This document shows, one piece after another, positions 16,923 to 40,920 of a stretch of DNA of 64,000 bases. The translations under genes and the position numbers were made by a program. Location of the stretch: NCBI GenBank assembly GCA_963702025.1, contig OY969699.1:864001-928000 (forward strand), written 5' to 3'. The notes beneath the pieces were generated by a model. That model saw nothing but the letters and a program-made list of their open reading frames with translations. It was not told where the DNA came from and searched no databases. Within the stretch, counting starts at the first letter, position 1; every line of letters starts with the position of its first letter. This stretch comes from an uncultured bacterium (GTDB lineage Bacteria; Babelota; Babeliae; Babelales; Vermiphilaceae).

Positions 16923-18647
16923 TTAACCCGCCACGTCGACCATTTTTTTGTATTCACGCAAGAAACTTGCCGCAACATTAGTAGGAACCCTCGAGGTGGC
17001 AGCATGCTCAACAAGAATAACAATCGTTAACGGTTTATGATCTTTATAAGAGAAGTATCCTACAAACCAGCCGTGTTCCAAAAATTCTCTTCCTAGATCA
17101 TGTTTGTCGAGGCTGCTTGTTTGCGCAGTACTTGTTTTAGCATAAATTTTAATATCTTTAATTTGTTTCACCCGTTGTCCCGTTCCTTGGTTAACCACTC
17201 TATACATAGATTGTTGCAGGAATTTACGTGTTTCAGCGCTTATGCCTACCGGTTGCTTGATTACTTCTTCTTCCATTAAGACACGGGGAGTAACCAGAAA
17301 GCCGGTAAATATGGAAGAGATCATGCGCGCAATTTGTATCGGGGTAACCAGTAGATAGCTCTGACCGATGGCAACAGACAATGTCTCGCCCGGCCACCAT
17401 TTTTCATGTTTAACTCTTTTTTTCCATGCCGAGCTTGGAATCAAACCTTCTTTTTCGGCAAAAATAATATCCGTTTTATGTCCCAGACCAAACCGATGGG
17501 CATAATCGGTAAAAAGATCTATACTAATTTTTTTTGCCGTCTCATAAAACATAATATTACATGAATGTGCCAATGACTGCTCGACATTCAGTAAACCATG
17601 ACCGTTTCTATTGTTACACCAGTATTGTCGTCCACTAAATTCAGAAAATCCGCGACAATTCCAACAGCTCTCTTGCTGAATAATATTTGTTTCCAGCATT
17701 GCGCTGACAGTTACTAACTTAAAAATTGAGCCCGGGGGGTAACAGGCATTAAAGGCACGATTGAGGAATGGTTGTTTTTCTTGTAAGGTGCGCCAATCAT
17801 CATCTTGAATAGGCTCAAGAAAGAGTGCCGGATCAAAGTTTGGCCGAGAAAGAAGCGCTACAATATCGCCATCCTGTGGGTCCATAATAATAAATGTGCC
17901 GGTGAACTCTTCAGGAAACACTTTTTCCACAATCGTTTGCAATGAGATATCCAGCGTTGTAGTGATATTTTGCCCGGGCAGGGCCTTTTTAACCTCAGTT
18001 TCGGACAAATTTCTGCCGATCGAGTTTATGGTCTTAACTTTTTGTCCATTTTCCCCTTTTAAAGTTGATTCGCACATTTTTTCAAGTCCCATTTTTCCAT
18101 ACATCTCCATGTCCATGCGGCTCAGATAACCAAGTAGATGGCTTGCGAATGATTTAAAGGGATAATATCGTTTAAAATGGGTGCTAATAATAATATTTTT
18201 CTGATCGGCAAGGCGCTCAACTATTTGGCTTAGCTGTTCAAAAGGAATATCTTCAGCAAGTAGTAACTTTTGGTAGCGTCGTTCCGCATGCCGTAGTTGA
18301 TCAAAAAATTCTTGGTTATTCTGCAATGGTTTACCAATGATGGTTTCTATCAATGATACGGTTTGCAATTGAGTTTGCGTAAATTTTACGCTGCCAGTTC
18401 CTTGCCAGTAAATATTGGTGGTGGGGCGGTTGGTGGCAATGAGTTGATTATTGCGATCAAGAATATTGCCGCGTAATGGTGCGATAGTTTCAACGCGCAA
18501 AAAGTTTTTTTGGCTCTTTGCATAAAGATCTGATCGCAACATGATCTGTAATTGAAAAAGCCTGCCTACAATTATGAGTAAGCCCACAACAAGTGCCCAA
18601 CAAGCGGTCCTTATTTTTGGTACAAGAATAGTGGGTTGATAAATCAT
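16923..18647 (-). CDS. mrdA: Class B penicillin-binding protein 2
   Basis: RGNILDRN, RYYP, YPPGSIFK (SxxK), SCN, AIGQ, KTS, HGWFVG. Confidence 0.88.
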   Translation of the reverse strand: MIYQPTILVPKIRTACWALVVGLLIIVGRLFQLQIMLRSDLYAKSQKNFLRVETIAPLRGNILDRNNQLIATNRPTTNIYWQGTGSVKFTQTQLQTVSLIETIIGKPLQNNQEFFDQLRHAERRYQKLLLAEDIPFEQLSQIVERLADQKNIIISTHFKRYYPFKSFASHLLGYLSRMDMEMYGKMGLEKMCESTLKGENGQKVKTINSIGRNLSETEVKKALPGQNITTTLDISLQTIVEKVFPEEFTGTFIIMDPQDGDIVALLSRPNFDPALFLEPIQDDDWRTLQEKQPFLNRAFNACYPPGSIFKLVTVSAMLETNIIQQESCWNCRGFSEFSGRQYWCNNRNGHGLLNVEQSLAHSCNIMFYETAKKISIDLFTDYAHRFGLGHKTDIIFAEKEGLIPSSAWKKRVKHEKWWPGETLSVAIGQSYLLVTPIQIARMISSIFTGFLVTPRVLMEEEVIKQPVGISAETRKFLQQSMYRVVNQGTGQRVKQIKDIKIYAKTSTAQTSSLDKHDLGREFLEHGWFVGYFSYKDHKPLTIVILVEHAATSRVPTNVAASFLREYKKMVDVAG

Positions 18648-19567
18648 ACGGTTCTTTTATTTTTTAATTGGCTGTGTATCGGATGAATAGTGTCACAGAG
18701 TTTAGATAAATCCTCAAGATTTACATGAGTATATTTTTCCGTGCTGGCTAACGTTTTATGGCCTAAGAGTTCTTGAATGGTGCGCAGATCCACACCTTGA
18801 TTGAGCAAATGGGTGGCAAATGAATGGCGTATTTTATGGGGGGTGATGCGGCGTTCGAATTTTAAAAATGAGCGAAACATTTCAAAAATGCGTTGAACGC
18901 TTCTCACGGTGAGTGCCTCATCACGGTTATTTAAGAAGAGATGTTCGGCGGGTGATCCCGGTTTTTGCCGTTCCTTTTCAAGATATTGCGTCAGTTTTGC
19001 TTGCGCCTTTTGCCCAAACAACACAATCCGTTCTTTCCTTCCTTTGCCCCGAATGCGGATTGTTTTATTCAGTAAATCGAGGTCTTTAAATTGAATGCCC
19101 ACCAATTCCGAGCAGCGGATGCCCGTAGCATAGAGCAGCTCAAAAATTGCTTTATCACGTAACGGCTTTTTAGTTGGCATTTTGTCATCAGCGATAGTGT
19201 CTAATAGAAAAAATATTTCATCGACACTTAAATACACCGGTAGTTTTTTATCAAGTCGCGGACGTTGTAATTTAAGTTTGAGTATGATCCCTTGTGATTG
19301 CAAAAATTTTTCAAATGTTTTAAAACAAGAAAATTTGCGCGCAATGGTCGCCTTATCAATTTTTTTATGAAACAGATTTACCAGATAACGCTCGATAATC
19401 TGGCGTGGCGCTAAATGATCTTTATCTTGTTGCGGTAATGAATCCCAGAATAAAAAAAATTGTTTTAAATCGCTTTCATAAGCGCGAAGCGTATGATCGG
19501 AAAGATTTTTTTCCACTTTGAGAAACGCGATAAAATCTTTTTTATAATTTTGCAATTGCTGGTACAT
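18644..19567 (-). CDS. xerC: Tyrosine recombinase XerC/XerD
   Basis: LLYATGIRCSEL, GKGRKER, PHKIRHSFATHLL, LLGH, TEKYTHV; TAATG overlap with ridA. Confidence 0.85.
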   Translation of the reverse strand: MYQQLQNYKKDFIAFLKVEKNLSDHTLRAYESDLKQFFLFWDSLPQQDKDHLAPRQIIERYLVNLFHKKIDKATIARKFSCFKTFEKFLQSQGIILKLKLQRPRLDKKLPVYLSVDEIFFLLDTIADDKMPTKKPLRDKAIFELLYATGIRCSELVGIQFKDLDLLNKTIRIRGKGRKERIVLFGQKAQAKLTQYLEKERQKPGSPAEHLFLNNRDEALTVRSVQRIFEMFRSFLKFERRITPHKIRHSFATHLLNQGVDLRTIQELLGHKTLASTEKYTHVNLEDLSKLCDTIHPIHSQLKNKRTV

Positions 19568-19935
19568 TAACATGCAATACACTCAATTTCAATCAATGCA
19601 TTTTTGGGCAATCGTGATACGGCAATGCAACTGCGTGCGGGCCGGTGATCAGCAAAATAGTCGCCATAAATTATATTTACCGTATTAAAATCATCCATAT
19701 TAGTTAAAAAAATTGTAGTTTTCACAACATTTTTTAATGTTTTATTATCAACGGCAAGTATAGCTTGGATATTTTTAAAAATTTGATGTGTTTGTGCATC
19801 AACGGTTTGGGCAAGAATCATTGATGCGGGCTCAAGTCCAAGTTGTCCACTTAAAAAGATGAAGCCGTTGATGCCAATTGCTTGGCTGTAGGGGCCGATT
19901 GCAGCCGGCGCTTGTGCCGATTGTATAATTTTCAT
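19567..19935 (-). CDS. ridA: RidA family enamine/imine deaminase
   Basis: APAAIGPYSQA, SGQ, VVKTTIFL, PARS, LPKNALIEIE. Confidence 0.92.
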   Translation of the reverse strand: MKIIQSAQAPAAIGPYSQAIGINGFIFLSGQLGLEPASMILAQTVDAQTHQIFKNIQAILAVDNKTLKNVVKTTIFLTNMDDFNTVNIIYGDYFADHRPARSCIAVSRLPKNALIEIECIAC

Positions 19936-24927: not shown

Positions 24928-27900
24928 ATGGCTCTTCATAGGTTTCTCACAGTATTAATTTTCTTTCTCACAACAACAAATGGAATGGAGAAAGTTAATA
25001 CCTTTAAGCAAGCGGCTTTTTTTCAAGCGATAATTAATAAAGAGATTGCAAAAATTGTCTATAGCGGCGACTACTCATTTAAAAATGCGAATAGCAATCT
25101 CCTTGTAACAGGATTGCAGTGCATACAAAATTCACTTAATATGCCTAAAGAATTAACCGCAAACAGAACAAGTTGTATTGTAATTGATAATTGCTCAAAA
25201 TCGGCTACAAATACTTTTTCGCTTTCGGGATATTCTGACCCGCAGAAGCTTACCTCATCATCGAATCATGGAGTTGGGACACCTATCTTTGGCCGAATGA
25301 GCTGGTTGCCGCCATCATTAGCTGCTTATAAGAGCAAGGGTTTTTTATATCCTGAAAAAATAATGGAAATTCGCTCAAAGATGATCGGTTATGAAATTAA
25401 TCATGCTATAAATGCCCTTCGTAGATTTGAAAGTAATTGCAAAAACATAAAGTCATCTGTTGATTTTATAAATGCAATAAGGGAGCTCAAAGATTTAAGT
25501 AAGTTGACCATTTCCGTTCCATGGTTTAATAATTTCCTTAAAGAAACAGTTAATAAATTGCAAAAAGAAACAAGCACTGCTAATGGATTTCTTAAACCTA
25601 TTACAACCAACGCAAAAAAAGTAGCAGATATTATTGATAATTTCCAACAAAGAACAATTAAGTGGTGCCATGATTATAACGATAGTTTGTGGGATATGGG
25701 CTGCAAAGCTATCGATTGGATTGATGGGGACCATGGTATTATCTCGCAATGTTATTGTGATGTGCAAAAATTTTGGGATCTGTATGGCGAGCAGCTAAAA
25801 AATAAACCTGCACATGACATTGTCTATGCAGGTCCATGGGGCTGGGAATTCACTGAAATTGCACCTTCCCCTTACGATGCCCAATTTCAACAAAAAATTG
25901 CTGAGAACCCTCAAAGCAAAGCTTTTTTGACTTTAGCTAAACTTGCATCAGAAAAAGATTGGCAAAAGATAGAAAGCTTTGCTCTTGAAACAAAAAATAG
26001 CCCGGGCTACTCAAAAGAATTTCAAAAATTTTATTCTGAAATTTTTAATCACAATTTTAACGATCAACGTCTTAATAAAAATCTTATCCGTGAAAATGAT
26101 CCGTTTTGTCAGCAAAGTTTAAAAGAATTGCCTCGATTAAAGCCAAATGATATAATGCCAACTGCTCATCCGGTTAACCAAAAGTTGGCTGAGCGTGTTG
26201 AAATATATGACACCCTAATGCAAAAATTGGGCATCGAAAGTCCGAGCAAAGAGATACAAACTGTGCTTTATAATTTAGTTGATGTCCTGCAAAAAAATGA
26301 TCCGCAAGAATTTGTAAATATCTTAATCTCTCAACTCAGCTGTGATCATGCCGATCCAGCGATAAGAAATCTTTATAATAAAATTCATACTGACGGCTTG
26401 TGTAACCTGCTTACCTATAATAATCCGGCAACTACTATAAGAATGAGTGAGCAAATTGGATTAAAACGGTATGAAAAGGAACGAACACTCCTTTTTAATC
26501 TGGCAACATGCTCCATTGATTCTCCTGCTAAAGAAACTCATGTAACAACGGCACTTAATTATTTGAAACAGGGTATTGGTAATGATCCTCTAGCAAAAGA
26601 ATATCTCACGCTGGCTCATGCTACCGGCAATGCGCTTTTATCTCCCGAAGGTAACCAAGCGGTCTTGAATTTGGCCGATTATAGCCAAGTGCCGACCAAT
26701 GATCAACAAAGAATAATTCATACAGCAGCAACCAAAATAATTGCCGATAACCTTGAGGTTATATCCGAAAATGATAATTCGGAATTGTGCGCGAACTCAA
26801 CCAACTTTAAAGCACTCGAAAAAATAGATGCGGCATATAAAGCAATGTTGGAAGGCAATCTTCTTGCTCAAGATTATCTGGATCAAGTATTGCTCTATGG
26901 GTCTGCCAACGAAACTAGCTTAAACATTGATTTTGGTGGACCGAGCCAAAGTTGCATACAAATTGATGCTGAACTAAAAAAATTAGCCCGTGAGGCAATC
27001 TATAGCAACACCGTTTCAAAAGAGTTTCAACAACTTTTCACTAAAGATTTTTTCAATAATTTCACTGACCAGGGATTTGATAAGTATTTAGTTCGAGAAA
27101 ATGATCCTTTTTATCAAAAGCTTAAGAATGAATTACCGTCGCAAAGGCTTGAAAATATACCGACAGCTTGTGCATATAACCAACAACTTGTCCAACGAAA
27201 TAGCATTTATGACAATATAGTCAAAAAGTTTGCAATCGAAAATCTAAGCAAAGAAGTACAAGCTGTACTTTATACATGGGTTGATAAAATCCAAAATAAC
27301 AATTGTCATGATCTAGGAAAACTAATAGTTTCTCAACTCAGCAGCGATCATGCCGAGCTGGCAATCAGGGATCTTTATAATAAAGTTCATACTGACGGGT
27401 TGTGCAATTTGTTTACCTACAATAACCCGGGAACAACGATAAAAATCGGTGAACAAATCGGATTGCAAAAACATGAAAAAGAACGAGCATTACTTTACAA
27501 CCTTGCAACATGCACCATTGCTTCTCCTGCCAAAGAGGCACTCGTAACAACCGCTCTTAACTATTTGAAACAAGGTATTAGTAATGATCCCTTGGCAAAA
27601 GAATATCTTACGTTGGCTCATGCGACCGGCAATGCGCTTTTATCACCGGGTGCCAATCGAGCAGTATTGAATTTAGCTGACTATAGCAAGGCGCCAATCG
27701 ACCCGCAACAAAAAGCGATCCATGCAGAGGTAACCAAAATAATTGCCGACAATCTTGAGGCTATTTTAGCAGGTAAAAGCTCGCCTTCTTCCAAATTAAC
27801 CGGCATACAGGCGATTCGAAAAGTTGATGCTGCTTACAAAGCAATGCGGCAAGGAAATCCTCAGGCGCAAGATTATCTTGAGCGGGCCTTATTGGTAAAC

Positions 27901-29322
27901 GGTGTTAATCAAAATGTGCTTAGTGTCGATTTTGATAAGCAAGCCGAACTCTTCAAAGAAATGGGAGTAGATAGAGTTGTTAATGAAATTGCTCGGATGA
28001 AAACGACCAATGAAAATCTGCAACAGTATGGCATTAAAATATGTAAAGAAATTGAAATTGACTATAAAATAACCCAGTTCATGGTAGAAAATAATTTGAC
28101 ATTAGAAAGATACACTCAATTCTATGGCAATGAATTACAGCATAAGATTCATGACGGCACGATTAAAATTATTTACGCAACATATGATTTGGTAAAAAAC
28201 CGGTCAATCGAAAGATTAGACAAATTCATGCTGGACAACATCAAAGACACCGTTTTACAAACCAATGATCTTGCGCTAAGTCATAATGTTGTGGGTGATG
28301 TTCAACAAGCGGCGGTGCTTTCTAATTTCTGTTGGCAAATTATCGATTTTGCCGAACGGGCAGTGAATTTGTCCGGGGAAATTGGTTTGGCTGCCGGCCG
28401 AGGCATCATCTCGGGGGTGCAAGAAAAAGCGATAGATCTTTATCACATTGCATCCGATCCGGTTGGCGCTGCTAAAGGATTGGTGACCTCTTTAGGGAAT
28501 CTCTGCGTTGTGGGGCAACAGTTGGTTGAGCAAAATAGAAAAATGCATGAGCTGCTTTTAGCAAGCCCAATGAAAACGCCATTCCCGGCTCTTATAGAAA
28601 TGAACAAGCAGAGCAGTGAACTCTTTAACTCGGTAATTGATTTTGCCAAACGGGAGGGAATAACCGGCATTGTTGAAAAAAGTGCCCACCTAGGCACAAC
28701 CACGGCGCTTGACACGGTACTCATCAGCAAAGGAGCTACGGTTCTTAATAAGGTTGCAAAAGTTGCCAGTAGCTCCAAAATGGGCGAATTCTTACAAAAA
28801 ATAACAAATGCGGCTAACGCAACAGAAATTGAAGCGGTTACGGCTGAAGGAATTAGCGCAAAAGTTGCTCAAAATGCTGAAAATTCTTTACTTAGTGAAG
28901 CAAGAGATGCTTCGGTAGCCTCGGTGCGCAGGGAACAAATATTACCAAAGTTTGATACTTATGAGCAAGCTAGAAATAAGGCTTTGGAAATAATAGGAGA
29001 TGTTAATCCCCATTCTGCAATGCCAATAATTGGAAAACAAGGTGTATGCAAGGGTAAAATTGTTGGCCAGCAGTGGTGTAACGGTAAAGTTACTTTAAGA
29101 ATAGATCATGATCTGCTTAAGGGGCCTCATATTAATATAACAGATTTTCGTGTGGCAAAAGGTTTAGATGGAATCGCAATAGCTATCCCCTTTAATGGAG
29201 ATGCTCAAACTATAAATTCATTACTAAAACACTTGAATACGCCGGCAAGCCTTTCGGCTGCAAAAGCAATTCTTCAAAAAAATGGGAAACTGGATTATTT
29301 CAATAAACTAATAGGAAACTAA
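24928..29322 (+). CDS. Large secreted polymorphic toxin with internal duplication and CdiA-CT-like C-terminal domain
   Basis: Signal ..TNG-MEK; ~310-aa duplication; C-terminus YEQARNKAL...LRIDHDLLKGPHINITDF...IPF. Confidence 0.75.
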   Translation: MALHRFLTVLIFFLTTTNGMEKVNTFKQAAFFQAIINKEIAKIVYSGDYSFKNANSNLLVTGLQCIQNSLNMPKELTANRTSCIVIDNCSKSATNTFSLSGYSDPQKLTSSSNHGVGTPIFGRMSWLPPSLAAYKSKGFLYPEKIMEIRSKMIGYEINHAINALRRFESNCKNIKSSVDFINAIRELKDLSKLTISVPWFNNFLKETVNKLQKETSTANGFLKPITTNAKKVADIIDNFQQRTIKWCHDYNDSLWDMGCKAIDWIDGDHGIISQCYCDVQKFWDLYGEQLKNKPAHDIVYAGPWGWEFTEIAPSPYDAQFQQKIAENPQSKAFLTLAKLASEKDWQKIESFALETKNSPGYSKEFQKFYSEIFNHNFNDQRLNKNLIRENDPFCQQSLKELPRLKPNDIMPTAHPVNQKLAERVEIYDTLMQKLGIESPSKEIQTVLYNLVDVLQKNDPQEFVNILISQLSCDHADPAIRNLYNKIHTDGLCNLLTYNNPATTIRMSEQIGLKRYEKERTLLFNLATCSIDSPAKETHVTTALNYLKQGIGNDPLAKEYLTLAHATGNALLSPEGNQAVLNLADYSQVPTNDQQRIIHTAATKIIADNLEVISENDNSELCANSTNFKALEKIDAAYKAMLEGNLLAQDYLDQVLLYGSANETSLNIDFGGPSQSCIQIDAELKKLAREAIYSNTVSKEFQQLFTKDFFNNFTDQGFDKYLVRENDPFYQKLKNELPSQRLENIPTACAYNQQLVQRNSIYDNIVKKFAIENLSKEVQAVLYTWVDKIQNNNCHDLGKLIVSQLSSDHAELAIRDLYNKVHTDGLCNLFTYNNPGTTIKIGEQIGLQKHEKERALLYNLATCTIASPAKEALVTTALNYLKQGISNDPLAKEYLTLAHATGNALLSPGANRAVLNLADYSKAPIDPQQKAIHAEVTKIIADNLEAILAGKSSPSSKLTGIQAIRKVDAAYKAMRQGNPQAQDYLERALLVNGVNQNVLSVDFDKQAELFKEMGVDRVVNEIARMKTTNENLQQYGIKICKEIEIDYKITQFMVENNLTLERYTQFYGNELQHKIHDGTIKIIYATYDLVKNRSIERLDKFMLDNIKDTVLQTNDLALSHNVVGDVQQAAVLSNFCWQIIDFAERAVNLSGEIGLAAGRGIISGVQEKAIDLYHIASDPVGAAKGLVTSLGNLCVVGQQLVEQNRKMHELLLASPMKTPFPALIEMNKQSSELFNSVIDFAKREGITGIVEKSAHLGTTTALDTVLISKGATVLNKVAKVASSSKMGEFLQKITNAANATEIEAVTAEGISAKVAQNAENSLLSEARDASVASVRREQILPKFDTYEQARNKALEIIGDVNPHSAMPIIGKQGVCKGKIVGQQWCNGKVTLRIDHDLLKGPHINITDFRVAKGLDGIAIAIPFNGDAQTINSLLKHLNTPASLSAAKAILQKNGKLDYFNKLIGN

Positions 29323-29329
29323 GGACCAT

Positions 29330-29749
29330 ATGGAAAAAACATTGTTTGATGAGTGTGTAGAACAACTTAAGCAAAATGTTCTAATTTTAAATCCAGAAGA
29401 TTCAAACAAAATATCGCAATTATTTGAAAATACTTACCCGCTTACCGAATGGGGGAAAATTGATTGGGATAGAATAAATAAAAAAAGTTTTATAGGTCAT
29501 GATCGCACCCGCATTTTACCAGCATTAGAAAAACTTTTGGGAAGAAATGAATTTGATAAATCTGTCTATATAGAATGGAGTGAAGCAGGTATACCTGTTA
29601 TTAAGACTGATTTAGATTTAGTAGTAAAATTTTTTGATGATATAACGTGTGTAGCTTTTGAAAAATTTATTTTTAATCCTCCACTTAGATATATAATAGA
29701 GGTTCGCCATCTTGGCGATATAAATGTTGGGGTGCTTAATGAAAAATAA
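29330..29749 (+). CDS. Cognate immunity protein (CdiI-like)
   Basis: Small gene 7 bp after the toxin; TLFDEC...WGKIDW...IPVIKT...DDITCV pattern. Confidence 0.7.
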   Translation: MEKTLFDECVEQLKQNVLILNPEDSNKISQLFENTYPLTEWGKIDWDRINKKSFIGHDRTRILPALEKLLGRNEFDKSVYIEWSEAGIPVIKTDLDLVVKFFDDITCVAFEKFIFNPPLRYIIEVRHLGDINVGVLNEK

Positions 29750-30720: not shown

Positions 30721-33447
30721 TTACATATCCAAGTTGTATTCTTTGCAACGCCTATTTACTGAGGAGCGGTTAACACCCAAAAAAGTGGCTATTTTGTTCT
30801 GATTTTTAAATTTGTTCCAAAGCAGAACCATTATTTTTGGGTCACGTAACGCATGTTTGCCCAAGCGGCTGGCTTGCAGCAGTTCAGGGTCAGTAATTTC
30901 ATAGGCAGGATTAAAATGGATTTCTTGTTCAATATTATTCTTTTTCGATTTTTGTGCCAGTAATTGTTGAATGCGGACTTTGAGTTCTTGGAGGCTCAGT
31001 GGGCGATTCTCCATGAGCTTTTCGCATTCTTTTGGTGTTAAACCAAGCAAATTTTTAAAATCATTGGTGCCAATTGCTTGTTCTGAATATCCTTGTGCCA
31101 ATTCGCTCAATTCTGTGTCGGGCAATTGTGCCAGTGATGGCATACAAACGGCGCATTTTTTGAGTTCATTAAATAAGGAAGGAGAGAAGGCGCCTTGTTC
31201 AACGAGCTTTTCTAAGCTGCAATCGGTTGAACAAATAATGCGCACATTGGCGGATATCTTGTGTTCGCTTTTATAAACGCGATAATAACCGAATTTAATA
31301 AATTCAGCCAAATATTCCTGCAAATCAAGAGCAAGGTTCTCAATGTTTTGAATAAAAAGTGTGCCGGTGCCATCAAGTTTTTCAAGAACAGGTTTTTGCT
31401 GAGTCGGTGTGCCAAAAATAGGATTTATGCCTAAGAGTTTAGTTGCTAGCTCCAGAGTATTAGCAGATTCGGTGAGATTGAGTGTTAAGAGTGTTTCTCG
31501 CATGCTGATATGATGCAAAAGTTCCACCATGGGCATCAAATCTTGCTCGGGTAGCTCCAACAGTGTTGCCTTTTTGCTGAGTGCCGTTTGCAAAAGGCTA
31601 ATTTTGAAATGGAGCAATGTTTGCCCATTGCCCGGAATGAGCTGATTAATAAGCTGTCCCGGTTTGGTAGTTTCTAAATAGAGTACGTAATCCCAGGTTG
31701 AGGGATCTTTAAGGACTGAAATTTGTTTGGTAATAATATCGCCAATATCCGGATGACTCACTGTTATTATGACATTATTTTGTTCAAGATTCAGCACGCC
31801 CGTGATGCAATATCTATTGCCGATAGTATCTTTGGCAAGCAGCGATTGAGGCGATTTATATTCTTGCACTTGCCGTGCAACCTGACGAATTGTTTTGGCA
31901 ATCGGATGACCATGTTCGGTGTTGAGATTAAACTGAATCATCTCTTTGGCCGCATGGTTTGCACAAATAAAGCGTCTGTTTTTATAAAAAATTATGCCAA
32001 TCTCTTTATGTTTGGCATGGGTAAAAAAAGAACGGATACTTTCTTTATATTGATCAATCTCCTGATTTTTTTTATATAATTCTTCCTGCAGCTCTTTTTC
32101 CTGAAGAACAAGTTTTTCTATATTTCTATGTTGTAAAAGATGAAAGATGTTTCCTAAGTATTGCGCAAAAATGAGCATCTGATCCCGCTGTGTTGCGGTA
32201 TATAATGCAGTGGGCAACGCATTTGATTCAACGATAACGTAGGCAATTATGTGGTTTTTTTCAAAGATAGGCAGAAAAATATCAGCGTTAATGGTGCTCA
32301 AGAAATTAAGAATTTCAGAACGCTTAACATCTTCATCGTAAAAATTACTAAATGCTATCTCATCGTAAATAAGTATTTTATTTCGGCTAATAAAATCACA
32401 GATTTCTGATGAATGTGACGAGCAAAATTCTTCAACTATTGCATCGATGTGGGTTGTTTTAGAATCAGCATTGTTGCGCGTAAATAAGGAGATTTTAGCT
32501 TGTGGAATCGCGAATGCTTGTTTAAAAAAAGTGCTCGTGATTTGTCCCAATTCCTGCACCGATGTCGCAAAGCTTAACTGTTCAAGGATTATTCTAAAAT
32601 CGTCAACAAAGTTAAAGGGGTGCTTTGCTTCCACATGACTGGTAAAATTTAAAAACCGCATACCCATAATGCGATTGATACAGCAATAAACGATGTAGGT
32701 AATGAGTAGTGCCGATATTCCTTCAATAGCATAGGCATACGGCTTTATTACACTAAACTTGAAGTTGAACGCTATTAAGAGCTCGGTAGCAAGATAAGGC
32801 ATCATCAAATATTTAATGATAATAGAAAGTTGATGATTTAATATTTTTGGCAGTGTACCCGATCTGATTTTTTTCAAACATAGATATAGACTGGGCAGAA
32901 CCAGGAGTGCCAAAAAGTACTGAATTGTCAGTCTTATGAGAGTTGCTTCAAAAGAGATGTTAAATGCCTGAAGAGCATTAAGAGTATAGATATGCGACGT
33001 TTCTCCCACACCGTTATGCCCAAAGAAAGCAAGATAGATAAAAGATAAGCATGTAACGCTGCTCAATACCAATAACATTTTTTGATAGAGTTTTATGGTA
33101 TGCTTTTTTTCTGTGAGGCTATCCAAAAATAAACCGATTGCTTGATACTGAGGTATAAGCAGCGCCCACGCTATGCGCGCGCAAAAAAGAAATACACTGT
33201 TGGGAATTAAGGGAAAAAAAAGTAACCGAGAAAGCTTAATTGTCCATGCAATTTCGCCTGCCATTGATCCGGAAAGAACGAGGATTAAATAAATGCAGGT
33301 TTTTTTTGTACTCGGTGATCTGAATACTTGCGGAATCAATAAAACGAGAAGAATTGTTTTAAGCGCGAGTGAAACAAACATGGTTAAAAAAAGAAATTGT
33401 GGCGAATTTAAAAAGCTAAGCATGCTGAGCATGATTATTGATCTCAT
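30721..33447 (-). CDS. Membrane-anchored regulator A: multi-TM sensor, GAF-like, PAS-like, degenerate sigma54-activator AAA+, Fis HTH
   Basis: About 7 N-terminal TM helices; DIFLPIF; GTLFIQNIE, NVRIICST; NQNKIATFLGVNRSSVNRRC. Confidence 0.85.
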   Translation of the reverse strand: MRSIIMLSMLSFLNSPQFLFLTMFVSLALKTILLVLLIPQVFRSPSTKKTCIYLILVLSGSMAGEIAWTIKLSRLLFFPLIPNSVFLFCARIAWALLIPQYQAIGLFLDSLTEKKHTIKLYQKMLLVLSSVTCLSFIYLAFFGHNGVGETSHIYTLNALQAFNISFEATLIRLTIQYFLALLVLPSLYLCLKKIRSGTLPKILNHQLSIIIKYLMMPYLATELLIAFNFKFSVIKPYAYAIEGISALLITYIVYCCINRIMGMRFLNFTSHVEAKHPFNFVDDFRIILEQLSFATSVQELGQITSTFFKQAFAIPQAKISLFTRNNADSKTTHIDAIVEEFCSSHSSEICDFISRNKILIYDEIAFSNFYDEDVKRSEILNFLSTINADIFLPIFEKNHIIAYVIVESNALPTALYTATQRDQMLIFAQYLGNIFHLLQHRNIEKLVLQEKELQEELYKKNQEIDQYKESIRSFFTHAKHKEIGIIFYKNRRFICANHAAKEMIQFNLNTEHGHPIAKTIRQVARQVQEYKSPQSLLAKDTIGNRYCITGVLNLEQNNVIITVSHPDIGDIITKQISVLKDPSTWDYVLYLETTKPGQLINQLIPGNGQTLLHFKISLLQTALSKKATLLELPEQDLMPMVELLHHISMRETLLTLNLTESANTLELATKLLGINPIFGTPTQQKPVLEKLDGTGTLFIQNIENLALDLQEYLAEFIKFGYYRVYKSEHKISANVRIICSTDCSLEKLVEQGAFSPSLFNELKKCAVCMPSLAQLPDTELSELAQGYSEQAIGTNDFKNLLGLTPKECEKLMENRPLSLQELKVRIQQLLAQKSKKNNIEQEIHFNPAYEITDPELLQASRLGKHALRDPKIMVLLWNKFKNQNKIATFLGVNRSSVNRRCKEYNLDM

Positions 33448-33466
33448 TGTAAAGTATGTTTATACT
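33438..33466 (+). promoter_or_regulatory. Putative sigma70 promoter for peptide gene A
   Basis: TTGATC-17 bp-TATACT, overlapping the start codon of the divergent regulator A. Confidence 0.55.
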
Positions 33467-33533
33467 ACTACCCAAGTTAAGTAGATAGAATATATACATT
33501 TTTTTTAATATTAAAAACCTTAAGGGGAAGAAT

Positions 33534-33620
33534 ATGATTCGTCTTCACGGATTATTAATAGTTTTGACAGTTGCAGTAATAGCTGTTTTGCTCGGCGACT
33601 TTCCACCGCCAATTGGCTGA
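33534..33620 (+). CDS. Unannotated 28-aa peptide A (MIRLHGLLIVLTVAVIAVLLGDFPPPIG)
   Basis: AAGGGG RBS, promoter, hydrophobic core plus DxPP tail shared with peptide B; same position relative to its regulator. Confidence 0.7.
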   Translation: MIRLHGLLIVLTVAVIAVLLGDFPPPIG

Positions 33621-33675
33621 GCAATTTTCAAGCCATGAATTCTAACATAGGTTAGAAAGAAAAGAAACTAACAAA

Positions 33676-36390
33676 TTAGGAGAGTAGGTTGAATTCACGG
33701 CATCGGCGGTTAACTGAAGAGCGGTTTACGCCTAAAAATGCAGCAATTTTGTTTTGATTTTTAAATTTGTTCCACAGCATCACCATTATGCGCTTGTCAC
33801 GAAGTGCGTGTTTGCCAAGGCGCGCTGCTTGAATAAGATCGGGATCCGAGACATCAAATGCAGGATCAAACTGAATCTCTTGTTCAATGTTATTATCTTT
33901 TGATTTTTGTACCAACAGTGTTTGGACGCGATTTTTGAGCTCCTGGATGCTTGCCGGTTTTTGTTGCAAGATTTTTGCTTTATCTTTTTGACTCAAATCA
34001 AGAAATGCTTTTAAATCGTCATTTTTTATGGCTTGTTGCGCGAGCCCCTGCGTGAGTTCTGTTAATTCAGTTTCGGGCAATACGAGCAATGAAGGCATGC
34101 TAAGTGTTGCTTTTTTAAGCTCATTATAGAGTGCGGCGCTAAAATTTCCTTCTTGAACCAATGTTTGTAAATTCTGATTGGTAGAGCAAATAATGCGAGC
34201 GGCGCTTGCCATTTTTTGGGTACTCTTAAACATTTTATAGAATCCGAATTTAATAAATTCAGCAAGATGTTCTTGGGTTTCGCCATCCATGAACTCGATA
34301 TTTTGAATGAACAGTGTTCCATTTGCATCAAGTTTCTCTAGCAACGGTTTTGACTCGCTTACCGTGCCGAATATTTGGTTCATGCCAAAAAGCTTTACGG
34401 CAATATCATAGTTTTTGCTTGGCCCTTGCAATGTTAAAACATGCAGATTGGTGCGCATGCTAATATGATGAAGTAATTCTACGGTAGGCATTAGATCATC
34501 GTAGGCCATTTCTAGCAAGAGTGCTTTTTTGCTGAGTGCCATTTGTAAAAGATTGATTTTAAATTGTAAAAGATGTTGGCCGGTGCCGGGTATGAGCTGA
34601 TTAATAAGTTGTCCGGGTCTGGTGGTTTCCAGATATAACAAGTAATCCCAGGCTGAAGGATCCTTTAAATGGTCTATCTGATTGCTGATAATATCGGAAA
34701 AATCCGGGTAATAGGCGGTTATGATGACGTGATTTTTTTCTAAATTGGGAACACCGCTGATCACAATACGTTCGCCTTCACTATTTTTAGTGATACAACT
34801 TTGCGGGGCTTTGTATTCTTCAACTTGTTGCGCGAGAGCTTTGAGCGCTTTTGTGAGAGGGGCCCCTTGATTGATATTAACGTTAATTTTGATTATTTCT
34901 TTAGCGGCTTGATTAGCAAAAACAAAATGGCGATTTTTATAAAAGAGTATACCGATCTCTTTTTGCTTATTATTTTTTAAGAATGAATGAATGCTCTCTT
35001 TGTATTGATGAATTTCTTGATGTTTTTTATAAAGTTCTTCCTTGAGCTCTTTTTCTTGATAGATAAGTGATTCAAAGTTTCTGTTTTGCAGCAAGTTAAT
35101 AATATTTCCCAAATAGCTTGCAAATACCAGCATTTCATCCCGCTCAATTTTGCTATAAAATTCATGCAATCGAGCATGCCGTTCAACAATAATATAGCCG
35201 ATTATCTGATGATTTTTGTAAATTGGCAGGAAAATATCGGCATGTATGCTGTCCATGAATGTTAAAATTGTTTGATCAGGAGCATTGGGATCATAGAAAT
35301 TATTAAAATCTATTTCATCATAAATTAAAATTTTTACTTTATTGATACATTTTTCTAATGCCGGATCGGTGTTACTTAAAAATGTTTCGGCATACATTTC
35401 ATATTCTGACAAAAGCATTTTGTTTGATTGTTCATCAATGGTGCTCGCAGCACGAATATGTAAAGAGATGCGGCTACCGGGAACGTTAAACGCCTCTTTA
35501 AAAAATGCTTGTGTGATGTGGCTCAGTTCTTTAATACTTGTTGTTTTGCCCAGTTCTTCGAGGGTATCTTTAAAACCTTCAACAAAATTATACCGGTGTT
35601 GTTCTTGCACATGGTTTTTAAAATTTAAAAAACGAAATCCTATAATTTTTCTTGCACAAAAATATAATGCTACTGTTAAAAGGGCAGTCGATATTCCGAT
35701 AATAGAGTAGCAGCTTGTAAAGTACCCATGAAAAATGTTGAAGGGGTAATATTGTATAAAGTCTGAAAGTAGACGAGGGACTATTAAGAATTGAATTAAT
35801 ACCAAAAACTGTTTTTTAAGAATTTTCGGTGCTTTTTTTTGTTTTAAACTTTTTAGAGAATAATATATCGTAACGGGCATTAAAATGAAAACTGCATAAA
35901 ATGGGAAATAACTTTGACCTATTAATTGAATCGCAGATGGAGTTAATGAAAAGGTTGTTCTAACGCAGGAATATAAGAAAAGCAGTGAAAAGCAAAATGT
36001 TATAGAAATGAAGATTTTTTGTCTAATGTTTATTTTGGAAACCGGCTCTATCAAATTTTCCAAAAATAAAGCTAATGATTGATATTCGATGGTATAAAAT
36101 ATCCATGAAAATCTTGTAAGAAAAAGAATAGTGGAATGTAATGTAAAACTAGGATCGACGATGATAAATTCTTTTGTAGCCAAAATGACCCATGCTAAAT
36201 CTTCACACACTGCCCCAATTAGTACTAAAACTAAATAATTGCGAGATTTATTTAGGGATGGAATGTGTATTTTTTGTGCAAAAAGGATAATCAGAATGTA
36301 GATTTTTATTAATAATGAAATTGTATTGATACTTATCAGAAATGGATAACTACCAAAAACTAGTTCGATCAAAGAAAAGATATTATTCAT
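33676..36390 (-). CDS. Membrane-anchored regulator B, paralog of 30721-33447
   Basis: Same architecture; near-identical C-terminal HTH NQNKIAAFLGVNRSSVNRRC. Confidence 0.85.
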   Translation of the reverse strand: MNNIFSLIELVFGSYPFLISINTISLLIKIYILIILFAQKIHIPSLNKSRNYLVLVLIGAVCEDLAWVILATKEFIIVDPSFTLHSTILFLTRFSWIFYTIEYQSLALFLENLIEPVSKINIRQKIFISITFCFSLLFLYSCVRTTFSLTPSAIQLIGQSYFPFYAVFILMPVTIYYSLKSLKQKKAPKILKKQFLVLIQFLIVPRLLSDFIQYYPFNIFHGYFTSCYSIIGISTALLTVALYFCARKIIGFRFLNFKNHVQEQHRYNFVEGFKDTLEELGKTTSIKELSHITQAFFKEAFNVPGSRISLHIRAASTIDEQSNKMLLSEYEMYAETFLSNTDPALEKCINKVKILIYDEIDFNNFYDPNAPDQTILTFMDSIHADIFLPIYKNHQIIGYIIVERHARLHEFYSKIERDEMLVFASYLGNIINLLQNRNFESLIYQEKELKEELYKKHQEIHQYKESIHSFLKNNKQKEIGILFYKNRHFVFANQAAKEIIKINVNINQGAPLTKALKALAQQVEEYKAPQSCITKNSEGERIVISGVPNLEKNHVIITAYYPDFSDIISNQIDHLKDPSAWDYLLYLETTRPGQLINQLIPGTGQHLLQFKINLLQMALSKKALLLEMAYDDLMPTVELLHHISMRTNLHVLTLQGPSKNYDIAVKLFGMNQIFGTVSESKPLLEKLDANGTLFIQNIEFMDGETQEHLAEFIKFGFYKMFKSTQKMASAARIICSTNQNLQTLVQEGNFSAALYNELKKATLSMPSLLVLPETELTELTQGLAQQAIKNDDLKAFLDLSQKDKAKILQQKPASIQELKNRVQTLLVQKSKDNNIEQEIQFDPAFDVSDPDLIQAARLGKHALRDKRIMVMLWNKFKNQNKIAAFLGVNRSSVNRRCREFNLLS

Positions 36391-36400
36391 AAGGATAATA

Positions 36401-36429
36401 TTGCCATTAAAAAAGCTAATCGTTATAAT
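36401..36429 (+). promoter_or_regulatory. Putative sigma70 promoter for peptide gene B
   Basis: TTGCCA-17 bp-TATAAT. Confidence 0.65.
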
Positions 36430-36467
36430 AAAGATGGTTTTTAAAGGTATAAATCAGGAGTTTCATT

Positions 36468-36578
36468 ATGCGTCGATTCGTTTTTCATTTTTATAAACTT
36501 TTAGATGCAAGATTATTGCTTGCTTTATTTGTACTTGCCTCGATAGTTCTTACTGATGGTCCTCCATCTGGTACATAA
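36468..36578 (+). CDS. Unannotated 36-aa peptide B (MRRFVFHFYKLLDARLLLALFVLASIVLTDGPPSGT)
   Basis: AGGAG RBS 7 nt upstream, near-consensus promoter, hydrophobic core plus DxPP tail. Confidence 0.72.
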   Translation: MRRFVFHFYKLLDARLLLALFVLASIVLTDGPPSGT

Positions 36579-36638
36579 TTTCATCCTATCACAATTCTAA
36601 CTTTTAACAAATAAAGCTTTTTGCTTCGTGGAGTGTCG

Positions 36639-37301
36639 GTGGATAAACAGGCTCGCGCTATTCGCATTATCGAAATTCTGCGTAAAGCAACAAAGGGCAT
36701 GGAACAGCCGGCTTCACTTCAAATTGTAAAGAGGTATGGAAAAGATCCGTACCTCGTTCTTGTGAGCTGTCTTTTGAGCTTGCGGACAAAAGATACAGTC
36801 TCTTTTCCTGCTTCTCAGCGACTTTTTGAACATGCCAGAAATCCTATAGAAATGCTCAAACTTCCCCTTCCAACCATAGAAAAACTTATTTATCCGACCG
36901 GTTTTTATCGAAGAAAAGCGCGTTTGCTGCACGAAGTAAGCGCTGATTTATTGCATCGTTTTAATGGCACGGTGCCGCACACCTTTGAGGAATTAACCTC
37001 GATAAAAGGGGTGGGAAATAAAACTGCCAATTTAGTTTTGGGTGTGGCCTTTGATATTCCTGCCATTTGTGTTGACACGCATGTTCATCGCATCTCTAAT
37101 CGTTTGGGACTGGTAAAAACTACCTCGGCCGACGAGACTGAGTTGGCACTTAAAAAATTACTCCCGAGCCGTTATTGGATTGAATTTAACCATTTGCTCG
37201 TGCTTTGGGGCCAAAATATTTGTGTCCCGATATCCCCATTTTGTTCAAAATGTGCCATTGCTGATCTTTGCCCTCGTGTTGGCGTGACCAGACATCGATG
37301 A
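36639..37301 (+). CDS. nth: Endonuclease III
   Basis: HhH GVGNKTA, VDTHVHR, C-x6-C-x2-C-x5-C Fe-S motif. Confidence 0.93.
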   Translation: MDKQARAIRIIEILRKATKGMEQPASLQIVKRYGKDPYLVLVSCLLSLRTKDTVSFPASQRLFEHARNPIEMLKLPLPTIEKLIYPTGFYRRKARLLHEVSADLLHRFNGTVPHTFEELTSIKGVGNKTANLVLGVAFDIPAICVDTHVHRISNRLGLVKTTSADETELALKKLLPSRYWIEFNHLLVLWGQNICVPISPFCSKCAIADLCPRVGVTRHR

Positions 37302-37413: not shown

Positions 37414-38418
37414 TTATTCCATATACTCGACCGGTGGTTCATATTCATTGATGATTCGTGCAATTTCTGGGTGGCCCTGTTGCTCGGCCCAATTGGCTGC
37501 AGTATGTCGAGTACTATCCACTTTATCTGGATCAGCCCCATATTGAAGCAAATCTTTAACAATATTGGTATAACCATTAATTGCTGCGGTAATCAGTGGT
37601 GTTGATCCGGCATAGTCTGTGATGTTTGGATTTGATCCACGAATTAATAATAGCTTAACAAGGGGGAAATACCCTTTTCTTGCCGCTTGTAATAATGCCG
37701 TTTCATCATAATTGTTTTGGGCATCAAGGTTAGGTTCATATGGAAGGAGACGATATATCATATCAATATTGTTAGCTTGGACCGCTTTCATGAGAGGTGT
37801 GTCGCCGGTGATGATATCTTTTGTATTAACATCCACAACATCAGTTTGCAAAAGATCATCCACTAAATTTTTGGCCGTTGGTGTTCTTTCTTGCATGGTC
37901 AGCAAAAGAAGATTTTCAGCCTGCGCTTTAAGTTCCGGACTTGCTTTTAGTTTGGCGGCTAAGGCCTTACTTCCTGTTAGTAGTGAAAAAAGTTGTTTAA
38001 CAAACTCGGGAGCATTTGGCTCATTACTGTATTCTGCCAGCAAGAGTGCTTCAGATGCTTGTTTTTTTAATGCTTCGTTGGTATTAATTTGTGAGCTGAT
38101 AAGGTTGAAAATTCCTTTTAATCCTTGATTTTCAGCGTTCCATGCAGCAATGATGATATTGCCGTTGGTAAATTTGTTTGATATGGCAGTAAGCAGGTTG
38201 GCCAGAATTTCAGGATTTTTACTGATAATTGTTTTAAATACTGCATATTGATTTATGGGGGCAAATGCCTCTTCAATTGATTTTGCAGGCTCAACATAGT
38301 TGGCTATATATGTGTCTAAAAATGGCTTTGTTTGTCCCATTTCCATGCTATTTATTAAAGTTGCCTGCAGGGCAACTATGAGAACTAAAAGAATTTTTAA
38401 CTGATTTTGTGGTTTCAT
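37414..38418 (-). CDS. Secreted ankyrin repeat protein
   Basis: Signal ..INS-MEM; TPLMKAV, TALLQAA, TPLITAA repeats. Confidence 0.88.
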   Translation of the reverse strand: MKPQNQLKILLVLIVALQATLINSMEMGQTKPFLDTYIANYVEPAKSIEEAFAPINQYAVFKTIISKNPEILANLLTAISNKFTNGNIIIAAWNAENQGLKGIFNLISSQINTNEALKKQASEALLLAEYSNEPNAPEFVKQLFSLLTGSKALAAKLKASPELKAQAENLLLLTMQERTPTAKNLVDDLLQTDVVDVNTKDIITGDTPLMKAVQANNIDMIYRLLPYEPNLDAQNNYDETALLQAARKGYFPLVKLLLIRGSNPNITDYAGSTPLITAAINGYTNIVKDLLQYGADPDKVDSTRHTAANWAEQQGHPEIARIINEYEPPVEYME

Positions 38419-38628
38419 ATTATTCACCTTTTTTTAAAATATCCTTTACTATTACTATTTTACTAACAAAGTAATTCAAATTGCAATAATTTTAAAGATT
38501 ATTCTTAGATTCTCGTTTTCCACCTGCTTTACCCTGTATTTAAAGACAAAAGCAGCAATATTATTGACAAATTGAGTTATCATCAGTTAGAATTTAGTAT
38601 AGATGAGACTAGGCTTAAAAAAGGGAAT

Positions 38629-39936
38629 ATGATGAAATTTTTATACTATTTTGCCACATTATTGATAATTGCCTGCCCTTTGCTTGCTATGGAGCTGCCG
38701 GGCAAACAAATAAAGAAACGAGCGGGTGAAGAAATTGAGCAAGAAAAGCCAACAAAAGTACCGGCTCTTGAAGTATGTCAAGAAAAAGAGATTGAAAAAT
38801 TGCAGGAAGAAGAATGGAAGCAAAAATCTGAATTTGAACAATTGCCTGATGAGATAAAGCAGCATATTTTCAGCTATTTAACAACATCGCGAGGTGCAAC
38901 TAAAGAAGCTCGTTTGCATGTAGCAGCAGAGAATATTAGATCCTTAGTAAGAACAAGTAAGGTATTTCAGTTGTTCTTGGATGATCAGCAAATTGCAGGT
39001 TATCTGTTTCATGAATTGGCAAAAAATTATGTTGCAGCAGATCCAAAAAATGTGACTCCAAAAGATTTGGTAACCGCTGCGCTTGCTTTGCAAACTGCCG
39101 GAGCAGGAAGATGGCTGAATGGTAAAGCATTTGTATTGGATCATTCTCTTGTCACCGATATCGGTAAACAAATAATTAATAAGTTTTTCATGGCTGCGCA
39201 AGATAGTGATTGGGCAAAGTTAAACTTTCTTATCCGTTACATTCCTAATTTGATAACGAGCGTTAATGATAAGAACTGGACATTATTACAGGTTGCAGCA
39301 GATTCAGGTGATCTCAAATTAGTAAATTTTGCAATTGATGCTTATAAAGCAATAAATAGGCTTGATTTATTTTTGGCGCCGACCCCACAGCATACATCTC
39401 CTTTATCATTTGCAGCATTTAGTGGAAATGTGGCAGTTTTTGATCTGATTTATAATAACATTCCTATTAATTATCGTACTTTTATTGTTCAATCATTTAA
39501 TCAGGAAGGGTACAATGTTTTGCATATGGCAGTGGGAGCAAAAGGCCATAGTGCTATGATTGATCGAGTTCGTCAACTGCCAGAAATTGGATTTCTTGTT
39601 AATCAAGCTGATAGACGGTCAAATAATCCCCTTATGGTAGCTATTGCAAATGATGATCTTGATGCAGTAGAGAGATTGGTGGCCATTCCGGGAATAGCGC
39701 TTAATTTTCGGGGTCCAGGTGGGGCAACGGCACTTATTCAAGCGGTAAAAAAATTTAATGTGGAAATGATCAAGATGCTTTTAAATCAGCCGAATATCGA
39801 TGTTAACATAGAAGATATATTCGGCCGTAACGCATTTTATTATTCGCAATACCAACCATTACCAACCACATGCGCATTTTCTCCAACCGTGCGGAATGCT
39901 ATTAATAAATTGCTACGTCAGCATGGGGCACATTAA
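38629..39936 (+). CDS. Secreted F-box-like plus ankyrin repeat protein
   Basis: ..LLA-MELP; FEQLPDEIKQHIFSYL; C-terminal ankyrins. Confidence 0.85.
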   Translation: MMKFLYYFATLLIIACPLLAMELPGKQIKKRAGEEIEQEKPTKVPALEVCQEKEIEKLQEEEWKQKSEFEQLPDEIKQHIFSYLTTSRGATKEARLHVAAENIRSLVRTSKVFQLFLDDQQIAGYLFHELAKNYVAADPKNVTPKDLVTAALALQTAGAGRWLNGKAFVLDHSLVTDIGKQIINKFFMAAQDSDWAKLNFLIRYIPNLITSVNDKNWTLLQVAADSGDLKLVNFAIDAYKAINRLDLFLAPTPQHTSPLSFAAFSGNVAVFDLIYNNIPINYRTFIVQSFNQEGYNVLHMAVGAKGHSAMIDRVRQLPEIGFLVNQADRRSNNPLMVAIANDDLDAVERLVAIPGIALNFRGPGGATALIQAVKKFNVEMIKMLLNQPNIDVNIEDIFGRNAFYYSQYQPLPTTCAFSPTVRNAINKLLRQHGAH

Positions 39937-40082
39937 AATGAAGCGCTATGATTTCCCCTTTATTCTAGTCCTTTTTTTTTCCCGTTTCTCTTATTGCGTG
40001 CCAACTATTTATTGACAATTAGAAATATAATTTGATAGAGTTAAAATAGCTTAAATTATTGTTTAAAAATCGGAGTATTTTT

Positions 40083-40874: not shown

Positions 40875-40920
40875 AAGAAGTGAAATAGGGAATTATTGTT
40901 TAAAAAACGGAGTTTTTAGA

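Follow-up and report, generated by a model that had tools for sequence, protein, structure and literature searches.

We describe a gene cassette found in a 64,000-nucleotide stretch of DNA (the window; positions 864,001 to 928,000 of contig OY969699.1) from an uncultured Vermiphilaceae bacterium of the phylum Babelota/Dependentiae. The window carries two cassettes in tandem, each formed by a gene for a large membrane-bound regulator and a divergent small open reading frame (ORF) for a peptide with a Pro-Pro tail. The cassette is real and widespread in the phylum, and it is apparently undescribed. We propose, with a probability of roughly 0.6, that a Pro-Pro peptide is exported and that its cognate regulator, a one-component membrane protein, senses it. 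The linkage of the two genes, the coding constraint on the small one, its promoter and ribosome-binding site (RBS) pattern, the anatomy of the precursor, the dead AAA+ domain of the regulator and the absence of sigma-54 can all be read from the sequences.

The source genome (G000) is a single contig of 1.6 Mb and 95% complete, and it holds no regulator copies besides these two, which are both on the reverse strand and 50% identical. Regulator A (908 aa; 30721..33447) comprises a seven-transmembrane (7TM) sensor resembling G-protein-coupled receptors (GPCRs) in its predicted fold, a GAF-like domain, a coiled coil, a PAS-like domain, a degenerate AAA+ domain of the sigma-54-activator type and a Fis-type helix-turn-helix (HTH), a layout assigned by homology to its modelled paralogue. 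That paralogue, regulator B (904 aa; 33676..36390), has the same architecture, and in its model the seven-helix GPCR-like domain (residues 1-255) occupies about 35626-36390. A first-pass annotation, made from the letters alone, had noticed that the sensor regions have diverged while the cytoplasmic and HTH parts are conserved. We can confirm it: identity is 26% in the membrane domain, 46% in the GAF-like domain, 63% in the coil/PAS-like part, 57% in the AAA+ domain and 75% in the HTH.

Both small genes lie on the forward strand. Peptide A (28 aa; 33534..33620) and peptide B (36 aa; 36468..36578) have a basic N-terminus, a hydrophobic core and a tail, ending in DFPPPIG and DGPPSGT, respectively. 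Each follows a sigma-70-type promoter with a 17-bp spacer (TTGATC/TATACT at 33438..33466, back to back with the start of regulator A; TTGCCA/TATAAT at 36401..36429) and an RBS (AAGGGG at 33522..33527; AGGAG at 36456..36460). The tandem regulators, the small ORFs with their translations, and the promoter-like and RBS-like sites were thus where the first-pass annotation had put them, and its remark that the peptides lack evident DNA similarity also stands, the only likeness being one short AT-rich match. The promoter of peptide B is the best site of the region, which as a whole has no excess of promoter-like sites (26 vs. 22 +/- 5 in shuffles). Peptide A ends convergent with regulator B, with a gap of 55 bp. 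The true start of regulator A is probably Met7 (33429), which would put peptide A about 104 bp away, as in orthologues. A collection of 15 billion proteins contained neither exact peptide sequence; three longer relatives were present, one unnamed and two named 'hypothetical protein'. A search for orphan peptide genes elsewhere in G000 found none that was convincing.

At the level of the phylum, a search with regulator A gave matches in 190 of 261 Babelota/Dependentiae genomes. Five of them, in families f18 and f19, are weak (E 1e-5 to 8e-4) and probably AAA-only, and 185 remain; strong matches were lacking in families f4, f6, f13, f15, f16, f18 and f19. Contigs titled Pseudomonadota or Acidobacteriaceae among the matches were counted as the same regulator family. 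The best 150 matches of a full-length regulator profile all belonged to this family, and no relatives were found in viral contigs.

For the linkage of peptide and regulator, 168 loci yielded 243 regulator ORF pieces; 48 without a usable N-terminus were dropped and duplicates were collapsed to 169 regulators, 160 of them with enough upstream DNA. We searched upstream of each for an opposite-strand ORF of 18-90 aa that starts 30-320 nt away and has a hydrophobic 9-mer and Pro-Pro within the last 15 residues. Such an ORF was present at 112 of the 160 regulators, a set on which the test was not blind, as it was fixed after the first peptides were known. Among the controls, 24 of 999 G000 genes passed, A and B themselves included, as did 5 of 298 other genes of the loci and 0.7% of shuffles. 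The unchanged test was then applied to held-out metagenome contigs (109 pieces, minus 27 without N-terminus, 7 duplicates and 8 with short upstream DNA), where 52 of 67 regulators passed; most of the others showed a close variant, with either x-P-G or a core of lower hydrophobicity. The first-pass annotation had named homologs without divergent small ORFs as the outcome that would speak against its proposal; the homologs carry them.

In genomes without the regulator, the endonuclease III gene nth mostly faces a xerC-like gene directly, and a xerC-like gene comes next after 63 of 113 terminal regulators. Thirty genomes were picked for having no strong regulator match; 28 had an nth match and 24 near-complete loci were examined, none of which (0/24) had a cassette-type small ORF beside nth. 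Thus, regulator and peptide form one cassette between xerC and nth. Dispersed paralogues usually have a signal-type small ORF of their own: 4/4 in G024, 5/6 in G015, all copies but one in G183 and in G260, and 1/3 in G009. The six G015 regulators (L173, L177, L186-L188) are highly diverged, and the five peptides that they face are Gly-rich and without Pro-Pro. Several of these have an acidic/Phe motif at their end, and together the five may represent a second peptide code.

To collect the peptides, we used a scored pick that rewarded Pro-Pro, RBS and ATG; it retained 143 ORFs, and 141 after two were removed by hand. Several features indicate that they are genes. In seven equal-length pairs at least 55% identical, differences at codon positions 1, 2 and 3 numbered 37, 16 and 54, although the choice of pairs favours this pattern. 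All four proline codons are used (107, 92, 37 and 8 times). Together, both observations mean that constraint acts on the peptide. A G-rich band lies at -10 to -7 before the start codon of the 143 ORFs, and TTG, a 17-bp spacer and TA-x-x-x-T (mostly TATACT) precede 111 of them, in a search that favoured such boxes and left their position free. The -35 box is 3-9 nt from the regulator start codon in 93 of 143 loci and the -10 box is also TATAAT on the opposite strand in 44 of 141, which suggests one bidirectional promoter for regulator and peptide. After the peptide, no strong terminator was found (mean z -1.2; 22% below -2).

A conserved TT after the -35 box is not claimed as an operator: on the other strand it corresponds to a weak purine-rich segment, 11-14 nt ahead of the start of the regulator, which may be the RBS of the latter. 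In one clade with long intergenic regions (L063, L067, L090, L092, L093, L095), a word similar to GTAGTGGT recurs some 30-40 nt ahead of the peptide RBS, a possible clade-specific operator.

The family motif of the peptides is x-x-P-P-x(1-4). Pro-Pro is present in 121 of the 141 peptides (partly by selection), DxPP in 23, [DE]xPP in 43 and R-[WFYMI]-PP in 13. Of the C-terminal tail that the first-pass annotation described as shared, the Pro-Pro holds and the DxPP is too narrow. The Asp common to peptides A and B is partly incidental, since DxPP is so infrequent and paralogue-A peptides mostly have R-[WFY]-P-P. Most peptides are short, 107 of 141 having up to 45 aa and 138 up to 100 aa. The short class consists of a basic N-terminus, a hydrophobic run stopping about three residues before Pro-Pro, and one to four residues after it; with Lys or Arg within the first ten residues in 81 of 94 short forms, plus the hydrophobic core, its anatomy is signal-like. 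In the D/E class, Ala, Gly or Ser comes right before the acidic residue in 18 of 34, compatible with a signal peptidase I site, and G000 encodes LepB, one M50 protease and two SppA. A lipoprotein reading was discarded, a lipobox-like pattern occurring in 1 of 141.

The long class, mainly in families f2, f5, f7 and f8, starts with a signal-like region, often ending in small residues, followed by the motif, which is often repeated. Here, the motif lies 15-70 residues behind the signal-like region with its putative small-residue cleavage sites. Nine loci have two to five copies of the proline unit after the signal-like N-terminus: L079 has three DDFPPMG-like units, L123 has LQCPP three times, L124 has PTPP five times and L136 has KPGPDVPSF three times, while L064, L065, L081, L097 and L189 have two or three units each. 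Besides, the small gene itself is present in two or three tandem copies in L027, L111, L170, L172 and L184. Repeated units and multiplied genes are what would be expected for a released, dose-dependent unit, and they are the strongest argument for a diffusible ligand. The first-pass annotation had left the choice between an exported pheromone and a membrane co-regulator; the repeat-bearing precursors favour the pheromone.

The receptor side was modelled with AlphaFold2 on a 145-sequence alignment (A1), with a pLDDT (predicted local distance difference test) of 91 for the full chain of regulator B. In the model, seven transmembrane (TM) helices between residues 15 and 251 are followed by an alpha/beta domain spanning 269-436, a long helix at 439-473 and, at 480-574, another alpha/beta domain, with the AAA+ domain and the HTH after it; TM7 continues into the fused cytoplasmic domains. 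For the membrane domain alone, pLDDT was 91.6 and the predicted template modelling score 0.90. Compared with 48,161 solved chains, all 50 listed matches were GPCRs or a designed GPCR-like fold (Z 14.5-16.4, root-mean-square deviation (rmsd) 3.5-5.6, identity 4-11%; one at Z 16.4 with rmsd 3.8 over 239 aligned residues). The 50 rows listed by Foldseek were also GPCRs, with weak E-values (5e-4 to 6e-3), and by sequence no solved structure was matched. Thus, the seven-helix domain is predicted to be GPCR-like in fold, a likeness that belongs to the model and is not proof of homology or function. Among look-alikes of the sensor in the Atlas, PF16927 was assigned to 16-65% of members (scores 0.84-0.91).

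Loops 1, 3 and 5 carry 3.3-4.2 Lys/Arg residues and loops 2, 4 and 6 carry 0.6-1.7, and therefore the N-terminus is predicted outside. Given this topology, the conserved residues D64, W67, R93, W96, E155 and Y165 fall in the outer halves of TM2, TM3 and TM5. GPCRs bind their ligands in the outer half, and stacking on Trp is a common way to read proline.

The cytoplasmic half points to an output that does not need ATP. Neither the Walker A pattern nor GAFTGA was found in any of the 145 regulators, and the AAA+ domain thus reads as an ATPase-dead scaffold. Its structure matches NtrX, NtrC1 and PspF in Foldseek, NtrX being the top match of the full model. Sigma-54 (PF04552) was above cut-off in 0 of 261 phylum genomes and in 4 of 14 controls. 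All NCBIfam scores of the regulator are far below their cut-offs, and databases label the family, misleadingly, 'sigma 54-interacting regulator'. From the GAF-pseudoAAA-Fis architecture of the first-pass annotation, the pseudo-AAA and the Fis-type HTH are confirmed. The GAF and PAS labels, which Pfam does not support, come from the secondary structure of the model, Atlas look-alikes (the nearest being HisKA_7TM and GAF clusters) and database names. Regulators of genus g47 (L105-L107) are about 800 aa long and lack the stretch matching residues ~475-574, the PAS-like domain.

Peptide and sensor also vary together. Of the receptors with a short Pro-Pro peptide, 85 of 88 retain W67, against 5 of 18 of those without Pro-Pro. 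In the latter, P188, Q194, P205 and R253, which served as controls and three of which are at the inner face, persist in 15-18 of 18. Conserved outer-half residues thus decay where the peptide has no Pro-Pro, and the control residues do not. Peptide similarity follows the sensor tree when the cytoplasmic tree is removed (partial rho -0.22), and the reverse gives 0.04. Sites that part acidic from basic tails are at outer loops (213-215, 226, 148) and elsewhere (246, 201, 137), all of them confounded with clade. Since kin share traits, this covariation is consistent with co-evolution and does not demonstrate it. The co-variation check proposed in the first-pass annotation gave the expected direction, confounded by descent. 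Its central claim, cognate ligand/receptor pairs, has genomic support in that the two genes travel together, duplicate together and show peptide similarity along the sensor tree.

From these data, we infer how the peptide would be exported, cleaved and bound, which way the signal would run, and what its targets and biological role would be. The small ORF would encode a precursor, made from a near-consensus sigma-70 promoter and routed to the Sec pathway by an N-terminus that is both basic and hydrophobic. Cleavage, either by signal peptidase I or within the membrane by an intramembrane protease, would free a proline-proline peptide of 5-8 residues on the outer side of the inner membrane. This peptide would bind the regulator whose gene lies head to head with its own, in a pocket of the GPCR-like domain that faces outward. 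The effect of binding would be relayed through the GAF-like, coiled-coil and PAS-like segments to the ATPase-dead AAA+ scaffold and the Fis-type HTH, which would switch sigma-70 promoters independently of ATP. The variable residues around Pro-Pro would provide specificity, making paralogues A and B two channels. The likely use would be sensing of self-density or confinement during intracellular replication. Gene order and lifestyle suggest density sensing, as well as a possible link to the downstream xerC and penicillin-binding-protein genes.

Several observations weigh against this proposal. An operator search by k-mer enrichment in the 5' UTR (untranslated region), upstream and downstream segments of 141 loci returned only the -35/-10 boxes and clade-limited words, and the same search found no target gene. 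For 15 of the 145 regulators in alignment A1 (frequently the second member of a tandem pair) and for 2 of 3 in G009, no peptide was found, and the G015 peptides lack Pro-Pro altogether. R-type tails occur almost wholly in one clade, so that covariation is confounded by descent, and the permutation ignores phylogeny. Peptide similarity between paralogue classes (20.2, 18.0) is only modestly lower than within them (25.4, 23.5). On the receptor side, helical bundles can reach Z ~13-14 without kinship according to the structural-alignment tool itself, the identity of the sensor to GPCRs is as low as 4-11%, and the sensor has no Pfam family, HisKA_7TM (PF16927) matching 0 of 145 regulators at E 0.05. 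The available text of PMC6561590 reports Sec and a diderm envelope with inner and outer membranes, and because of this envelope a released peptide would need to cross the outer membrane as well to act between cells. Finally, one locus (L171, the same as L100) has, about 140 nt upstream of its regulator, a 33-aa ORF with a strong RBS, four Trp-Pro-Leu repeats and no signal region, a possible leaderless variant.

The best of the rival explanations, clearly less probable than release and still to be taken seriously, is a membrane-anchored modulator in the same cell, similar to MgrB or SafA. The uncleaved peptide would pack on the 7TM domain with its Pro-Pro tail as tethered agonist or inhibitor, and the system would respond to how the peptide is made, inserted or turned over (the state of the envelope or of secretion) rather than to cell density. 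In most peptides (the 107 of up to 45 aa) the tail of 4-8 residues comes directly after a single hydrophobic helix, which an uncleaved membrane peptide fits as well, and the anatomy of the short class is compatible with MgrB-type small-protein regulators. A small residue at the position for signal peptidase is found in 0 of 13 R/K-type tails, and the hydrophobic core covaries with the sensor tree too (partial rho -0.225). However, no residue of the hydrophobic helix is conserved, and a one-to-one tether leaves unexplained the long forms that repeat the motif up to five times, 15-70 residues past the signal-like region.

We consider it improbable that the small ORF is a regulated output, a proline-rich peptide secreted to act on the host or on competitors and encoded next to the regulator of its own promoter, with the 7TM domain sensing, for example, a host lipid or metabolite. 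Head-to-head overlapping promoters are common for regulator-target pairs. Some long forms are basic, diverse and 75-124 aa long (L098-L103, L128), and Dependentiae secrete many host-directed proteins (available text of PMC6561590). Against an output, each duplicated regulator keeps its own diverging peptide, the loss of Pro-Pro goes with the loss of outer-pocket residues, and peptide similarity follows the sensor domain and not the DNA-binding half. A ribosome-arrest or leader peptide acting in cis on nth is very unlikely: the C-terminal Pro-Pro near the stop does resemble RAPP/RGPP motifs and the gene downstream of the peptide is co-directional at 90 of 143 loci (mostly nth), but it is convergent at 46, including peptide A (none is near at 7), the nth loci of regulator-less genomes lack the ORF, the spacer from core to Pro-Pro is about three residues in the 94 short forms vs. 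more than 30 in the criteria given in the available text of bioRxiv 10.1101/2023.09.02.556018 (reached by some long forms only), where the upstream ORF is co-directional with sec or yidC, neither of which is among the recognisable downstream genes here (several singletons are unidentified), and repeats and tandem genes are left without explanation.

Regarding the surroundings in the window, nth (36621..37301, forward strand) is the conserved flank of the insertion site, outside the cassette, and is probably co-transcribed with peptide B. The other ancestral flank is the xerC-like tyrosine recombinase gene (18644..19582, reverse strand), followed by the penicillin-binding protein gene (16923-18647, reverse strand); about 11 kb of other genes separate the xerC-like gene from regulator A. 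A region at 24895-29749 on the forward strand encodes a 1475-aa signal-bearing protein with internal repeats and, 7 bp on, a CdiI-like immunity protein (PF24172, E 1e-32), probably an antibacterial polymorphic toxin/immunity pair. The C-terminal domain of the 1475-aa protein had no Pfam match. Positions 37414-50838 contain eight clustered ankyrin-repeat genes (one with a weak F-box-like match) and a Sel1/DUF5092 gene, typical of the phylum.

The cassette should be seen together with the other signalling genes of the phylum. A profile search found no receiver domain in G000 (95% complete, one contig); its two HATPase_c matches were read from translations as GyrB- and MutL-like, and no histidine kinase was found. 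Receiver domains are present in 33/35 genomes of f18, 11/12 of f19, 2/2 of f16 and 1/1 of f13, vs. 4/79 of f1. In f18, f19, f16 and f13 they belong to an NtrX-like regulator, with an NtrY-like kinase elsewhere. This NtrX-like orphan (REC, AAA, helical tail; L266-L285) sits in a conserved run, named from translations, of tpiA, secG, mlaE/F-like, the response regulator, moxR-like and secretin-region genes; G000 lacks it at that locus. In its Walker B region, it is degenerate in the same way (G-T-L-F-x-K-N) as the 7TM regulator family. The NtrX-like pair and the cassette complement each other only in part, since neither is present in f4, f6 and most of f15. An origin of the regulator by fusion of a 7TM kinase and a response regulator is not supported, as the 7TM profile matched none of the genomes tested from f18, f19, f16 and f13 (0/5).

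The available text of PMC10075063 presents quorum sensing by peptides as a trait of Bacillota, in which the receptor follows one of two designs, a membrane kinase or a cytoplasmic TPR protein. For the second design, RRNPP, the same text gives a propeptide of 10-100 aa, adjacent genes, export by Sec or PptAB, and a cytoplasmic receptor of 250-500 aa with TPRs. As in Rgg/SHP, PlcR/PapR, NprR/NprX, Rap/Phr and AimR/AimP, a small propeptide gene adjoins a one-component receptor-regulator here; the propeptides (28 and 36 aa) are within that length, have a basic N-terminus and a hydrophobic region, and their codes are diversified among paralogues. In contrast, the receptor has ~905 aa, seven TM helices and no TPR match (Pfam, NCBIfam), and with a membrane receptor the peptide need not be re-imported. 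Moreover, the host belongs to a diderm intracellular phylum and not to Bacillota, and no sequence relationship was detected.

ComX/ComP/ComA is a two-component system of peptide quorum sensing (available text of PMC10075063). AgrD/AgrC and ComC/ComD are two-component systems too. What our proposal shares with all of them is a peptide sensed outside by a multi-pass membrane domain that diverges along with it. Unlike Com and Agr, neither the regulator nor G000 has a histidine kinase or receiver domain, the cassette has no dedicated maturation enzyme or exporter, and sensor and DNA-binding output are one chain. Lacking Walker A and GAFTGA in a phylum without sigma-54, the regulator does not qualify as a sigma-54-dependent enhancer-binding protein (EBP). 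It shares an AAA+ core with a Fis-type HTH and no GAFTGA with the atypical sigma-54-independent EBPs (NtrX, TyrR, VpsR, DhaR), but here Walker A is lost as well (145/145) and the input is a 7TM domain rather than a receiver or small-molecule domain.

GPCR-like 7TM domains of bacterial kinases and cyclases (PMC13581589), including E. coli DgcT and CdgI (PMC10760455), are similarly fused directly to a cytoplasmic output; here the output is a transcription factor, and the sensor has no Pfam match to HisKA_7TM. Such bacterial sensors are known from surveys of structures, and the available texts of both papers name no genetically linked peptide ligand for them. Yeast alpha-factor/Ste2 and neuropeptides have polyprotein precursors with repeated active units after a signal peptide, and a seven-helix receptor. 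Our cassette shares the putative signal peptide, the repeated units and a similar predicted fold (on the model: seven TM helices, N-terminus out and helix arrangement), and differs in the low identity and in having no G protein; coupling to G protein or arrestin is not expected in a bacterium. We see an analogy of design, with homology not established.

The genome paper on a cultured Dependentiae reports, in its available text, that quorum-sensing mechanisms are absent (PMC6561590), and none of the words sigma, regulator, signal and quorum occurs in the main text of PMC4776705. The literature searched, mostly outside subscription papers, gave no description of the cassette; these proteins may stand unnamed in small-protein catalogues, PMC11364881 among them, and in the 7TM list that belongs to PMC13581589. 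By its genomic evidence, the cassette is like peptide quorum sensing, yet it is a member of no known family.

A broader proposal is more tentative, and we hold it as possible rather than probable. The cassette could be a third, independently evolved class of bacterial peptide communication, in which a GPCR-fold receptor is itself the transcription factor and is linked to a neuropeptide-like repeat precursor. It would be the main membrane-to-DNA route of most Babelota families in place of the NtrY/NtrX-like pair, counting siblings in the protist host and timing division via the xerC and penicillin-binding-protein genes.

If this broader proposal is true, it would provide a bacterial receptor of GPCR fold with an identifiable cognate peptide ligand, and more than 200 natural pairs for testing. 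Each receptor adjoins its candidate ligand, which makes orphan bacterial 7TM signalling testable with cheap synthetic peptides, and the paralogue pairs would serve as specificity controls. This candidate design of peptide signalling is apparently undescribed, and it occurs in bacteria living inside protists. Because it fits neither of the two known designs and is present in ~70% of the phylum genomes, most of them without a response regulator, the cassette is a strong candidate for the sensing and timing of the cycle of these reduced intracellular parasites.

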